Below the pieces are notes generated by a model. That model searched no databases. It saw nothing but the letters and a program-made list of their open reading frames with translations, and was not told the origin of the DNA. Made by a program: the position numbers and the translations under genes. Positions 59 through 18,014 of a stretch of 20,000 nucleotides of DNA are shown here, one piece after another (the stretch's first letter is position 1; the number at the start of each line of letters is the position of its first letter). The DNA is taken from IMG/VR virus record IMGVR_UViG_3300032304_000757; one strand, written 5' to 3'. This DNA is from an uncultured virus (IMG/VR IMGVR_UViG_3300032304_000757). Taxonomy: Duplodnaviria > Heunggongvirae > Uroviricota > Caudoviricetes.

Positions 59-448
59 ATGGCTTATTCAGACAAAGTTATTGATCACTATGAAAATCCA
101 CGCAACGTAGGTAGCTTTGCTAAAGACGAGGACGGAGTAGGTACCGGCATGGTTGGTGCTCCTGCTTGTGGCGATGTAATGAAACTACAAATAAAGGTAG
201 ACGAAAATGGCATCATCCAGGATGCGAAGTTTAAAACGTACGGCTGTGGCTCAGCGATCGCGAGCTCGAGTTTGGTTACTGAATGGCTCAAAGGAAAAAC
301 TCTTGACGAAGCCGGAACAATTAAAAACAAAGAAATAGCCGAAGAACTAGCCTTACCTCCAGTAAAGATACATTGCTCAATCTTAGCTGAAGATGCTATT
401 AAAGCCGCAGTAGCTGACTATAAATCCAAACATGATATCAATAACTGA
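59..448 (+). CDS. iscU: Fe-S cluster scaffold protein IscU (129 aa)
   Basis: MAYSDKVIDHYENPRNVG N-terminus; three conserved Cys (GAPACGDVM, YGCGSAIAS, KIHCS); LPPVK HscA-binding motif. Start moved from 17 to ATG 59, which follows AAGGA and matches the canonical IscU start. Confidence 0.97.
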   Translation: MAYSDKVIDHYENPRNVGSFAKDEDGVGTGMVGAPACGDVMKLQIKVDENGIIQDAKFKTYGCGSAIASSSLVTEWLKGKTLDEAGTIKNKEIAEELALPPVKIHCSILAEDAIKAAVADYKSKHDINN

Positions 449-755
449 AATTGCTGCCTGTAAAGTAAAAGAATCCCTTGTTCGTCGAGGCAAAGGATTT
501 GGAATCAAAGTAGGTGTAAAAACCACTGGGTGTTCAGGACTAGCGTACACTATAGAGTATGTAGACAATCCTAACGAACACTGTATGGAACATCACGATG
601 TAAACGGAGTAAGAATTTACATAGACCCAAAACATAGACCGTATTTGTACGGCACAACTATGGATTGGACTAAAAAAGGTTTAAACGAAGGATTCGATTT
701 TATTAACCCCAACGAAAAAGATCGTTGTGGGTGTGGTGAATCTTTTCGAGTATAG
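432..755 (+). CDS. iscA: A-type Fe-S carrier IscA (HesB family, 107 aa)
   Basis: TTGCSGLAY and C-terminal NPN...CGCGESF motifs; directly follows and overlaps iscU. Confidence 0.95.
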   Translation: MISITEIAACKVKESLVRRGKGFGIKVGVKTTGCSGLAYTIEYVDNPNEHCMEHHDVNGVRIYIDPKHRPYLYGTTMDWTKKGLNEGFDFINPNEKDRCGCGESFRV

Positions 756-852
756 AACACCTACCTTAGGACCGGTACTAGTTACCGAAGGTGTGCCCGG
801 CTGCTGGGCTGTAGTTAGTAGGAGTCGTGCCCAAACGCTACTGAAGTGAGCA
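756..852. ncRNA. Candidate structured RNA containing segments complementary (plus) or identical (minus) to conserved rRNA sites; family unknown
   Basis: Fills the whole gap between two convergent stop codons. 53/97 nt are G+C (55%) in an otherwise AT-rich window. Stems: ACACCT 757-762/AGGTGT 789-794, CGGTA 773-777/TACCG 783-787, GCCC 795-798/GGGC 806-809, GTAGT 811-815/GCTAC 837-841. No U-tract after the stems. CTACCTTAGGACCG 761-774 is the reverse complement of 23S rRNA 1920-1933. Confidence 0.6.
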
Positions 853-1140
853 CTAATTTTTCCCCACAGGCAGTGTAGAACTAGCAGGCATATCCCATAT
901 AGCTTTACGTTCCACTGCTTTTCTTTTGGCAAATCGTTTAGCATCACAATTAGAGCAAACATGAAAATAGTTGTTGCTTAGTCTACGGTAATCTATTTGC
1001 TTTAGATCTCTTTCAAATGTATCGTTACAATTATCACAGCGAAACAAAGCCACAGTTTTAGATCGTGAATACGAATGTTTCACACCAAGTTTGCTGGTGC
1101 GTATATATTCCAGTGTACGGATTTCTTTCTTTAAGAACAT
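853..1140 (-). CDS. Small basic zinc-ribbon protein (95 aa), function unknown
   Basis: Two CxxC pairs (FRCDNC, HVCSNC); Lys/Arg-rich. ATG at 1140 preferred over 1185 because the longer start would overlap both TAAATA boxes in the intergenic region. Confidence 0.8.
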   Translation of the reverse strand: MFLKKEIRTLEYIRTSKLGVKHSYSRSKTVALFRCDNCNDTFERDLKQIDYRRLSNNYFHVCSNCDAKRFAKRKAVERKAIWDMPASSTLPVGKN

Positions 1141-1145
1141 AAAGT

Positions 1146-1151
1146 TATTTA
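1146..1151 (-). promoter_or_regulatory. TAAATA late-promoter-like box for the zinc-ribbon gene
   Basis: Minus strand reads TGTAAATAACTTTATG; the box ends 5 nt before the ATG at 1140. Confidence 0.5.
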
Positions 1152-1175
1152 CATTCGGCTTACAAAATTTTGGGC

Positions 1176-1181
1176 TAAATA
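1176..1181 (+). promoter_or_regulatory. TAAATA late-promoter-like box for the structural operon
   Basis: gcTAAATAtc ~30 nt upstream of ATG 1213; Shine-Dalgarno GGAG at 1202-1205. Confidence 0.55.
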
Positions 1182-1212
1182 TCAATTATAAGGTATTCAA
1201 CGGAGTTCTCTA

Positions 1213-9744: not shown

Positions 9745-11400
9745 ATGTCCGAAATAGATCGTTATGAATTTATAGTGACTCTTAAAAATAGAGAGGATCT
9801 ACCTAATTTCTATGACGACATGGAAACTCCTGGCGGCGATTTATACATTCCCGATCGTGCTGTAGCTGTGGCCAGCAGAAGACATATCAGCAGAAATACT
9901 CATTATTATCTCACAGAACAAGAAGCAGATTTATTAAAAAATGATACTCGAGTATTGGCAGTATCTAGATTGCCTAGAGATCTTGGCATGGTACCTATTT
10001 CACACTGGCAGCAGACTGGAAAATTTGAAAAAAGTACTGCTGTTCAATCCACTGATAAGAATTGGGGATTGGCTAGAATTGTTAATGGAGTTCAAACTGA
10101 CAATTGGGGCAACAATGGACTTTTTAACGAATTACAAACTTCCATAATTACTGATTCAGCAGGCGAGCACGTGGATGTTGTAATCGTAGATGCCCATATA
10201 AATCCCAATCATCCCGAATTTGCTGTCAACGAGGACGGCACCGGCGGAACCAGGGTTATTCAATACGACTGGTTTCAGCATCAGACAGAGGTCGGATTGA
10301 GCGGATTAGGAACATACAGTTACACTAGTTTTAGTAGTAATCATGGCACACACGTAGCAGGAACCGTGGCAGGCAATACTCAGGGGTGGGCTAGAAAATC
10401 TAATATTTATTATATGGAATTTAATTACAACCCATTTTCTCAACCAGATGGGTGGGCAGTATATCTATTTGATTTTATTAGAGCATGGCACAACAGCAAA
10501 CCAATTAACCCAATCACTGGACGCAGAAATCCCACTGTGACCAATAACAGCTGGGGATATAGTTATGGTTCTATTTCCCTAAGTGGTATTACTAGTGTGA
10601 CCTATCGCGGAGCAACCACTAACTTAACTGGTTTGACTACCGCAGCTAAAAAAATTCAGTTAGAAAACAATGGTGTTCCTGTGCCAGCTTCAACGTTTCT
10701 GTTTAGGACGCCAGCAAGACTCTATGCGTTAGATGCTGATGTAACTGATGCGGTTGAAGACGGAATTATCGTAGTGGCATCAGCTGGCAACAGTTATTGG
10801 AATATGACCGACGACCCTAATCATCCAGATTACAATAACAACGTGTTTGACGGCGGAGTGCTTTATCATTCCAACGGTTCTAGTCCGGGTGCGGCAGAAG
10901 GTGCTATCTGCGTAGGTGCGTTAAGTACTTTTACCCAAGAATATAAAGCAAATTTCAGCAATTATGGCGATAGAATAGATATCTGGGCACCTGGACAAAA
11001 TATAATATCAGCTGTTTTTAATTCCACGGCAGCTCAAGAGTTTGGTATTTCACTGGCTGATGACCCGAGAAATTCTGCTTTTAAAATAGGATCAATATCA
11101 GGTACCAGTATGTCTGGACCACAGGTAGCAGGAGTAATTGCTTGCATGATGAGCAGATATCCTAACTATACTCCAGAAGAATTGTACAATTATTTAATTG
11201 CCAATGCTAAAACAGGCCAGATAGGAACCACCAACGGAAATCATGGAGATTATACAAATATCAGAGATAGTGTAAACAACTATCTGTATTTTCCAGTAGA
11301 AAGAGCACAACAAGGCACAGCTTTTCCAGACGTTAGCTACGATCTACGTCCAACCACAGGCAACATATATCCTCGACTACGTATTAGAAGACGCGGATAA
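9745..11400 (+). CDS. Subtilisin-like serine protease, peptidase S8 (551 aa)
   Basis: Catalytic motifs in the correct order: VDVVIVD (Asp), NHGTHVAGTVAG (His), VASAGNS (oxyanion Asn), ISGTSMSGPQVAG (Ser). Also FSNYG..IDIWAPG. N-terminal propeptide-like region, no signal peptide. Confidence 0.93.
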   Translation: MSEIDRYEFIVTLKNREDLPNFYDDMETPGGDLYIPDRAVAVASRRHISRNTHYYLTEQEADLLKNDTRVLAVSRLPRDLGMVPISHWQQTGKFEKSTAVQSTDKNWGLARIVNGVQTDNWGNNGLFNELQTSIITDSAGEHVDVVIVDAHINPNHPEFAVNEDGTGGTRVIQYDWFQHQTEVGLSGLGTYSYTSFSSNHGTHVAGTVAGNTQGWARKSNIYYMEFNYNPFSQPDGWAVYLFDFIRAWHNSKPINPITGRRNPTVTNNSWGYSYGSISLSGITSVTYRGATTNLTGLTTAAKKIQLENNGVPVPASTFLFRTPARLYALDADVTDAVEDGIIVVASAGNSYWNMTDDPNHPDYNNNVFDGGVLYHSNGSSPGAAEGAICVGALSTFTQEYKANFSNYGDRIDIWAPGQNIISAVFNSTAAQEFGISLADDPRNSAFKIGSISGTSMSGPQVAGVIACMMSRYPNYTPEELYNYLIANAKTGQIGTTNGNHGDYTNIRDSVNNYLYFPVERAQQGTAFPDVSYDLRPTTGNIYPRLRIRRRG

Positions 11401-16725: not shown

Positions 16726-16967
16726 TGTTTCACCCACTCGAAGGAGATCTTAGCCAATTAAAGGACTCTGAAGTAGAGGCCAAGCTAGTTGAATTGACTA
16801 GAAAATACTATCAAGCATCAAGATTAGGTAACCCTGATCTCTTGACACAGATATCAACTTTTGTTACAATATATAGAGATGAGTTGCGAAAAAGACAAGC
16901 AAAACTAATGTCGTCTACTAATAATGTAACTAATGAGGATTTGGGTCAGTTGATCAATGTTGACTAA
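16725..16967 (+). CDS. Hypothetical protein (80 aa, helical)
   Basis: TAATG stop-start coupling with the upstream gene; fills the gap to the next gene. Confidence 0.75.
   Translation: MFHPLEGDLSQLKDSEVEAKLVELTRKYYQASRLGNPDLLTQISTFVTIYRDELRKRQAKLMSSTNNVTNEDLGQLINVD
16842..16870 (+). promoter_or_regulatory. Sigma70-type promoter inside the 80-aa gene
   Basis: TTGACA (16842-16847), 17-nt spacer, TACAAT (16865-16870), with extended -10 TG at 16862-16863; ~85 nt upstream of the DnaE-fragment ATG. Confidence 0.7.
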
Positions 16968-17430
16968 TACAGAAAATAATCTAATACAAGGTATATTAAA
17001 ATACGGTCCAGATATTTTGGAGGACTGCCTTGTGGAAAAAACAAATCCAAATATTGAAAATTATTTGGAAAGAATAGCAGTAGAGAAACTGTTATATCCT
17101 CAACCAATGCTGTCAGAACCTGTTGGCAGGAATTGGTTTATACCTAAAGAATACCAAAACTTAGATATTGAAGAATATTTAATTACTCAATGTCCGAAAG
17201 AAAATTATCAAAGAGTAATTGATGAAATTACTCTGTTTAACAAATACGATATGATAGATGTGCTACGAGTTATGAAATATCTAGTAGATACCCTGAGAAA
17301 AAACAACATAGTATGGGGAGTTGGGCGAGGAAGCTCCGTTTCTAGTTACTGTTTATATCTAATAGGGATACATAAAATAGATAGTATAAAGTACGATCTT
17401 CCTATATCGGACTTTTTCAAAGGAGAATAA
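16957..17430 (+). CDS. Stand-alone fragment of DNA polymerase III alpha subunit (DnaE-like, 157 aa)
   Basis: RVIDEITLF...YLVDTLRKNNIVWGVGRGSSVSSYCLYLIGIHKIDSIKYDL matches the DnaE GxGRGSxxxSxxxYxLGIxxxDPxxxxL segment. The ORF ends before the catalytic PDIDxD motif. Confidence 0.85.
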   Translation: MLTNTENNLIQGILKYGPDILEDCLVEKTNPNIENYLERIAVEKLLYPQPMLSEPVGRNWFIPKEYQNLDIEEYLITQCPKENYQRVIDEITLFNKYDMIDVLRVMKYLVDTLRKNNIVWGVGRGSSVSSYCLYLIGIHKIDSIKYDLPISDFFKGE

Positions 17431-17654: not shown

Positions 17655-18014
17655 ATGGCTGCGTACGAACCAAAAAAAATAAAACTCAAAGCTATTCATG
17701 ATAATGTTCTAATTACTGACATGGAATTTGGAGAACAAAAAACTAGCTCAGGTATTATTTTAAAGTCCGATGACGGTAAGGTACACGGTATTAAGCCTCG
17801 GTGGGGACAGGTGTACAAAGTTGGACCCGAACAAACAGATGTTAAAGAAGGTCAATGGGTCCTTATTGAGCATGGTCGATGGACTAGGGGATTAGATATC
17901 GACGACGGTGAAGGTGTTAAAACTATCCGCAAGGTTGACATATCCTGTATGTTAGCAGTATCTGATGAGCCACCGTCATCAGATGAAATTTACATTCCGC
18001 TAGTTAATACCTAA
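17655..18014 (+). CDS. GroES/Cpn10-like co-chaperonin (119 aa)
   Basis: LKAIHDNVLI...EQKTSSGIIL mobile loop...GQVYKVGP...VKEGQWVL matches the GroES pattern. Confidence 0.85.
   Translation: MAAYEPKKIKLKAIHDNVLITDMEFGEQKTSSGIILKSDDGKVHGIKPRWGQVYKVGPEQTDVKEGQWVLIEHGRWTRGLDIDDGEGVKTIRKVDISCMLAVSDEPPSSDEIYIPLVNT

Follow-up and report, generated by a model that had tools for sequence, protein, structure and literature searches.

A conserved, uncatalogued structured RNA of large phages, probably antisense to one junction of 23S rRNA

What occupies the short gap between an iscA-like gene and a convergent reading frame in an uncultured phage, and does it address the ribosome? We studied this locus in a window of 20,000 nucleotides (the whole stretch of DNA that was analysed; IMG/VR record IMGVR_UViG_3300032304_000757), which is a piece of a large phage genome. 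An earlier note had read positions 795-852 as a mosaic of conserved ribosomal functional sites, a multivalent RNA with words complementary to four centres of 16S and 23S rRNA. Our analysis places these positions in the back half of a small folded RNA at 756-852, which is one member of a conserved, uncatalogued family of structured phage RNAs. The element and its direct neighbours are:

59..448, plus strand: iscU/NifU_N gene (Pfam PF01592, E 1e-53)
432..755, plus strand: iscA-like gene directly upstream of the element (Pfam PF01521), not a fixed partner of it
756..852, plus strand: the whole structured RNA, arranged as P1/L1 - P2/L2 - P3/L3 - 3' tail; lone hit of covariance model R1
853..1185, minus strand: convergent small Cys-rich viral ORF, function unassigned

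The element occupies the whole 97-base gap that separates the iscA stop codon from the convergent ORF, beginning at the base right after that codon. Beyond this group of iscU, iscA, element and convergent ORF lie tail and baseplate-type genes and genes for a subtilase, GroES, a clamp-loader-type AAA protein and a dCMP deaminase. The iscU and iscA genes (59-755), whose frames overlap, are phage-encoded Fe-S cluster assembly genes, and the search with IscU gave no close relative pointing to a host. The convergent ORF has no match in Pfam or PHROG, its closest Atlas clusters being unnamed viral proteins; in many relatives, as judged by eye, its homologue directly adjoins the iscA stop and the element is absent. 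Further along the window, the subtilase gene (9745-11400) sits among structural genes, a GroES-like gene stands alone at 17655-18014, and the match of a 157-aa ORF at 16957-17430 is confined to a portion of the DNA polymerase III alpha NTPase domain (PF07733).

To collect relatives, we ran pattern scans, seven on viral contigs and one on metagenomes, together with an iscA scan, and called members with a profile that includes the loop L1. Among the matches listed, this profile search found members in 102/120, 120/120, 90/112, 112/120, 95/119 and 54/119 of the pattern-scan loci, at 4/80 iscA loci and at none of 120 pattern hits in cellular genome contigs; likewise, none of 151 cellular genomes of one order carried a copy. 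Weaker hits were then included, and seven loci were removed, four of them manually and three because contig ends truncated them; the family comprised at least 308 unique members. Covariance model R1 matches the window once, at 756-852 on the plus strand (model positions 1-90), with the window itself being part of the training alignment.

The carriers are a clade of large uncultured phages of about 200-350 kb. One strong copy is present in each of five phage records (238-353 kb). Of 46 further records, 26 of them picked because they had the element, 32 have exactly one match, at different places. Among 20 records picked by iscA, two have the element adjoining iscA and three clearly, one doubtfully, elsewhere; the remaining 14, all fragments that are 18-60% complete, are without it, and both iscA-picked records of more than 90% completeness carry it far from iscA. 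A second copy (L1032, G015 C1:76943-77016) was seen in a complete 353-kb phage; it has the pseudoknot core without the anti-H69 loop L1 and contains a 10-nt complement of 23S 1927-1936. A weak hit in G036 (E 0.011) was set aside as not recognisable as a family member.

Rfam 15 gave no hits in the window and nothing overlapping 756-852 at E up to 10, six divergent members drew only unrelated sub-threshold hits, and the Rfam ribozymes matched neither the element nor the divergent members. Cultured phages showed no DNA match apart from one 25-nt chance hit. Neither Rfam nor the literature searched yielded a natural RNA that pairs with the functional core of bacterial 23S rRNA. The motif was not found in the text passages and six supplementary files of PMC10690425 (Fremin et al. 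2023), three further files of which may list it, and PMC10085705, in the passages searched, held nothing relevant; the motif could stand, without the interpretation given here, in the supplements of PMC10690425 or PMC5737381 (Weinberg et al. 2017).

The fold is built from the following parts:

757..762/789..794, plus strand: P1 (757..794 with the inner hairpin), from fold prediction
773..777/783..787, plus strand: P1b, inner hairpin from the fold, absent from the shortest members
795..798/806..809, plus strand: P2 hairpin with the 7-nt loop L2 (799-805); all four pairs covary, 98.8% of cells paired
811..841, plus strand: P3, with outer stem 811-815/837-841, inner stem 821-822/831-832 and loop L3 at 823-830 (class 2); outer and inner pairs covary
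844..852, plus strand: 3' tail, second strand of the pseudoknot (800-802/849-851 and 803-805/845-847, with 848 bulged)

Covariation was judged in an alignment of 80 sequences picked for diversity, in which variants are over-represented; a noisy automatic parser served solely to pick the sequences. Across P2, P3 and the pseudoknot, 91.5% of cells are paired and 237 cells are changed on both sides, values reached by none of 500 shuffles, and structures slid along the alignment drop to 30-48% paired. The pseudoknot itself has 93.3% of its cells paired. Its pair 801/850 turns from C-G to G-C in 14/80 sequences, further compensatory changes occur at 800/851, 802/849 and 803/847, and the last U of L2 lies opposite a tail A in 80/80. 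P1 is less strongly supported than P2, P3 and the pseudoknot: among the matches listed, L1 is enclosed by a helix of at least 4 bp in 82% of 281 members versus 62% with swapped arms, and of at least 5 bp in 48% versus 21%.

The loop and the tail change together in two separate collections. For the counts we used scans anchored on L1 and L3 that leave L2 and the tail free, with three chance hits removed by hand, and not the scans that fix loop or tail, which make both look invariant. Among the matches listed, 147 of 222 members have both strands canonical, 67 both changed, seven the loop only and one the tail only; after clustering at 85% (n=149) the corresponding numbers are 98, 45, 6 and 0. 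Even where loop and tail are both entirely different, they pair, at -8 to -14 kcal/mol, compared with about -5 kcal/mol for the canonical duplex, which is among the weakest of the family. A pooled energy test of cognate versus non-cognate combinations was uninformative (38/65 types), because its parser had scattered the canonical loop over many types and let chance hits through. Folded alone under a model without pseudoknots, the window element does no better than shuffles (z 0.73). Because of this covariation, comparative analysis identifies P2, its loop and the 3' tail as an H-type pseudoknot that forms the structural core of the RNA.

The structural part of the earlier note thus fared well. 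Its GCCC/GGGC hairpin is P2, its stem at 811-815/837-841 covaries, and its expectation of a structured RNA agrees with stems that covary while loops are conserved. It had also suspected a pseudoknot between the hairpin loop and the 3' end; one exists, in another register than the proposed TGCT 802-805/AGCA 849-852, which is no better than shuffles. The G-U pair 799/805 becomes superfluous once the loop sits in the pseudoknot. Two deviating groups were observed. Six members (L575, L1061, L1105, L1106, L1118, L1144) form a subfamily that lacks the pseudoknot; they retain L1 and L3 and carry a small hairpin similar to 23S helix 67. Three others (L717, L759, L772) combine L1 and a variant pseudoknot with no recognisable L3 word.

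With the fold at hand, we turned to the four ribosomal words, taking E. coli rrnB (L001) as reference rRNA. As matches they are correct: 798-807 is an exact complement of 16S 518-527 (h18, the 530 loop), 818-826 of 16S 337-345 (h14) and 845-851 of 23S 1099-1105 (GTPase-associated centre), and 827-836 complements 23S 2490-2498 (peptidyl transferase centre, PTC) with one extra C. Their number was compared with 3000 dinucleotide shuffles of 795-852, conserved rRNA positions being 9-mers shared by E. coli and at least 5/6 other 23S or at least 4/5 other 16S sequences. The outcome was mixed. The 12 matches of at least 7 nt are ordinary against a shuffle mean of 9.7 (p 0.27), as are the three at conserved positions (2.05 expected, p 0.33), the coverage (p 0.13/0.24) and the longest match of 10 nt (p 0.12; at conserved positions p 0.021). 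The presence of two matches of at least 9 nt at conserved positions is unusual (2 versus 0.10, p 0.002; one of 16 statistics computed). The shared polarity that had been emphasised is partly a matter of selection, for across the whole element 27 matches of at least 7 nt are antisense and 18 are sense, one of the latter reaching 11 nt.

In the homologues, the words should be invariant on the multivalent reading and instead vary at all four sites, an outcome that the earlier note had itself named as refuting its reading. Among the matches listed, the h18 word is kept in 145/222 members (77 lack the 16S 9-mer), the GTPase-centre word in 154/222 (68 lack the tail match), the h14 word in 9/308 and the PTC word in 1/308, the window itself. 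Within the L3 class of the window, the h14 word occurs in 9/74 members and its last 6 nt, two of which belong to the stem, in 73/74, again among the matches listed; both the h14 and the PTC word run across stems and variable bases. Of 25 divergent loops, not one retains 8 nt against h18, and at best they match rRNA as well as shuffles do (6.4 versus 6.1; 7.1 versus 7.2) in a set where one of 26 loops was unparsed and three were mis-parsed. Because loop and tail change in a compensatory manner and divergent loops match rRNA like shuffles do, the 16S 518-527 and 23S 1099-1105 words are, on comparative grounds, the two strands of an internal pseudoknot helix. The matches to 16S h18, 16S h14, the PTC and the GTPase centre are most likely by-products of the pseudoknot or chance, and the reading of the element as a mosaic of ribosomal sites is unsupported.

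A different complementarity emerges when the front half of the element is included:

761..774, plus strand: L1, 14-nt exact complement of 23S 1920-1933 (3' strand of H69 and H70); longest-match p 0.0007 against shuffles
779..785, plus strand: P1b segment complementary to 23S 1910-1916 (loop side of H69), its core conserved
825..830, plus strand: core of the class-2 L3, a weak 6-nt complement of 23S 1964-1969, tied with two other 23S sites

When L1 was left free in the search, 185/194 members kept a run of at least 10 nt to 23S 1917-1934 and all 194 kept at least 8 nt, among the matches listed. Variants of L1 are not preferentially wobble-compatible, and eight members have a pair-breaking U to C. 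The 4-nt core of the P1b segment is kept in 177/219 members with a long P1b, or in 210/219 if wobble-compatible change is allowed (among the matches listed).

The second loop, L3, falls into four classes of 221, 74, 7 and 3 members, with three of the 308 lacking an L3 word; in class 2, to which the window belongs, the loop is identical in 74/74 (both counts among the matches listed). Over the complete 16S and 23S rRNA, the best Watson-Crick site of class 1 is 23S 1930-1937, abutting the L1 target (p 0.0015 within 23S 1930-1980), and that of class 3 is 1968-1976 (p 0.00035); the class-2 match to 1964-1969 reaches p 0.028 against a random loop (duplex p 0.066) and the class-4 target is not significant (p 0.14). 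The region 1930-1980 was picked after the matches were seen. For class 3, 28/28 members (extra or overlapping) have a run of 8-11 nt, 7 nt of which the search pattern had prescribed. According to the Rfam consensus, the targets lie in the unpaired linkers that flank H71 on both sides and in the adjoining H67 strand. The 23S target positions are universally conserved.

Among the matches listed, L1 extends over 1931-1932 in 61/74 class-2 versus 32/221 class-1 members, counts that are uncorrected for kinship. Within a lineage with variant L2 and tail, 35/35 members keep L1 (33 with at least 11 nt) and 31/35 keep an 8-9-nt L3 match, among the matches listed. In cofolding with the window element, 23S 1901-1976 was the best of 214 rRNA windows, and 16S 461-536 ranked third, 2.8 kcal/mol behind. 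We also observed that 16/222 members, the pseudoknot-less subfamily among them, have an additional 7-mer that complements the other strand of H67, at 1828-1834 (among the matches listed). Across the family, two loops are complementary to one 23S region, helices 69-71, and the RNA is not multivalent for four ribosomal centres. A phage-encoded sense partner was also sought: a pattern for copies of the GTPase centre hit five places in 23 records, and on visual inspection none looked like rRNA. In five records, two copies of the L1 9-mer occur in sense orientation.

How is the element carried in the genomes? It follows iscA in 4/80 iscA relatives, where it is there or gone as one block. The upstream genes differ among members (70 of 155 scanned): IscA 4, ferritin 4, SNase 4, dCMP deaminase 3, others 4 and none 51. 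Among the matches listed, a same-strand gene precedes the element in 164/197 members at a median of 1 nt, a same-strand gene lies downstream in 159/197, a promoter-like site follows in 44/197 compared with 6/1051 background windows, and the 3' flank is U-rich in 158/281. The downstream genes start 7-70 nt from the element and are unrelated across members. The element behaves like a relocatable single-copy gene that would be co-transcribed with any upstream gene. As had been suggested earlier, the plus (antisense) strand is likely the RNA: its stems contain 109 G-U versus 29 A-C cells, or 51 versus 29 without the G-U pair of the pseudoknot. Two sequencing runs considered for signs of expression consisted of contigs, probably of DNA, and contained elements of relatives.

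We consider it rather probable, from sequence comparison, that the element is a small plus-strand phage RNA that uses its pseudoknot as a scaffold and offers two loops to domain IV of the host 23S rRNA. It would be read as part of the transcript of the upstream gene and released from it, and the H-type pseudoknot would hold L1 and L3 in place. L1 would then pair with 23S 1920-1930/33, with the short P1b segment for 1910-1914, and L3 with the single-stranded linker beside helix 71, at 1930-1937 in most members, at 1968-1976 in class 3 and probably at 1964-1969 in class 2. Since H69-H71 are folded in the mature subunit, such pairing in trans with domain IV would be easiest on 50S that is free or immature and in which H67-H71 remain flexible. 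The relevant passages of PMC3737534 describe H67-H71 as unstable in 45S precursors and H69 as forming bridge B2a, and translation is inhibited by a synthetic PNA directed at H69 (Kulik 2017, cited in PMC12828698). During infection, 50S would likely be sequestered or mature late, with bridge B2a affected; a protective or recruiting role may also be considered. A bolder version, in which the scaffold with its swappable loops clamps the H69-H71 junction from two sides as a natural RNA-only anti-association or assembly-checkpoint factor and, at its boldest, the opened canonical pseudoknot reaches the 16S 530 loop as well, has in our judgement slightly less than an even chance.

Several other explanations were weighed against this proposal. 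L1 and L3 might be conserved for binding of a protein or ligand or for catalysis, with the complementarity being chance or the relic of an origin in an inverted stretch of 23S rDNA. A pseudoknot bearing invariant loops is a typical sight in aptamers and ribozymes, and the 5' half of the element does read like a degraded reverse complement of H69 (duplex over 1906-1933). We nonetheless regard this as unlikely: a relic does not predict that unrelated L3 classes land on different stretches of one junction, no compensatory change links L1 to L3, and the pseudoknot bases are freely exchanged. The earlier note had already argued that this is not captured rDNA, and we agree, as the matches are short and out of order and the stems covary independently of rRNA. 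Internal pairing of L1 with L3 was rejected for want of compensation across classes, and a DNA-level decoy of a homing site because L1 and L3 lie 24-60 nt apart and the stems covary as RNA. It is distinctly improbable, to our mind, that the canonical pseudoknot opens to bridge the subunits, either through L2 binding the 16S 530 loop or through loop and tail binding 23S 1070-1076 and 1099-1105. L2 indeed also complements 23S 1070-1076, 23 nt from the match of the tail, the 10-nt h18 match is by itself uncommon (p 0.0017 for the 11-mer concerned), and the canonical combination is the commonest one although its duplex is so weak; yet the loss of the 16S and tail words and the shuffle-like divergent loops described above speak against it, as the scarcity of the h14 and PTC words does against a multivalent RNA.

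The strand and the genomic setting bear on two further readings. Were the minus strand the RNA, it would carry the same words in sense and could act as a decoy, its rRNA-like epitopes attracting rRNA-binding proteins or nucleases; some A-C cells on the plus strand are in line with this, particularly when the pseudoknot G-U pair is left aside. The overall excess of G-U, the close same-strand upstream gene and the U-rich 3' flank argue otherwise, and the rRNA pieces, being out of order, would not reconstitute H69-H71, so that we see very little prospect for a decoy. Slighter still is the chance of an element acting in cis on its mRNA, either as a SAM/SAH-like riboswitch or as a tether behind the stop codon that captures the 50S of the terminating ribosome. 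Its position directly behind a stop codon, the frequent same-strand downstream gene, the H-type pseudoknot and loop and tail words presumably like those of SAM/SAH riboswitches would suit such a role. Against it stand the lack of any Rfam SAM/SAH match at E up to 5, most similar variants included, the varying pocket bases, the unrelated neighbours, the single copy per genome, the convergent gene in the window and the separate promoter-like site that follows. We therefore retain the antisense proposal as our preferred reading.

If the binding is true, phages would control host ribosomes or their assembly through an RNA. The family offers natural variants for such a case, with four L3 versions, many pseudoknot sequences and members without pseudoknot, L1 or L3. 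The negative result on the four words removes the 16S 530-loop and GTPase-centre claims, which would misdirect experiments.

Among known systems, the element recalls loop-presenting antisense RNAs of the CopA/CopT, RNA I/RNA II and OxyS-fhlA type. In both, variable stems show conserved loops complementary to a target, with two loops for neighbouring target segments; conserved exposed segments complementary to one target amid covarying stems are found here for L1 and for L3 classes 1 and 3, and weakly for class 2. Unlike these RNAs, the element has host 23S rRNA as its predicted target instead of an mRNA or primer, is built on a pseudoknot scaffold and is not encoded opposite its target.

The likeness to the SAM/SAH riboswitch is one of topology only. 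Loop and tail words of some members, L942 and L971 being closest, are presumably similar to those of this riboswitch, with no Rfam match. As far as the available part of PMC7367207 describes it, the riboswitch, like the element, forms an H-type pseudoknot by pairing a short hairpin loop with a 3' tail; its ligand pocket is more than 97% conserved, a loop U is free for the ligand and its pseudoknot strand holds the ribosome-binding site of the downstream gene. In the element, by contrast, loop and tail are replaced in 67/222 members (among the matches listed), the last loop U always faces the tail A, there is no Shine-Dalgarno or start-codon logic, P1 and P3 are extra arms, and a convergent gene or unrelated downstream genes follow. 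Ribosome-associated ncRNAs such as the Haloferax Val-tRNA fragment (from a portion of PMC11009984) are likewise small RNAs on a ribosomal subunit, binding being predicted for the element; the fragment is a tRNA piece at the decoding site of the small subunit, whereas the element would be a viral gene antisense to 23S. A further comparison is the anti-helix-69 PNA (Kulik et al. 2017, cited in PMC12828698), which base-pairs against 23S H69 and inhibits translation. The PNA is man-made and unstructured, whereas the phage RNA is natural and, by its predicted pairing, would add a second loop for the H70/H71 linkers.
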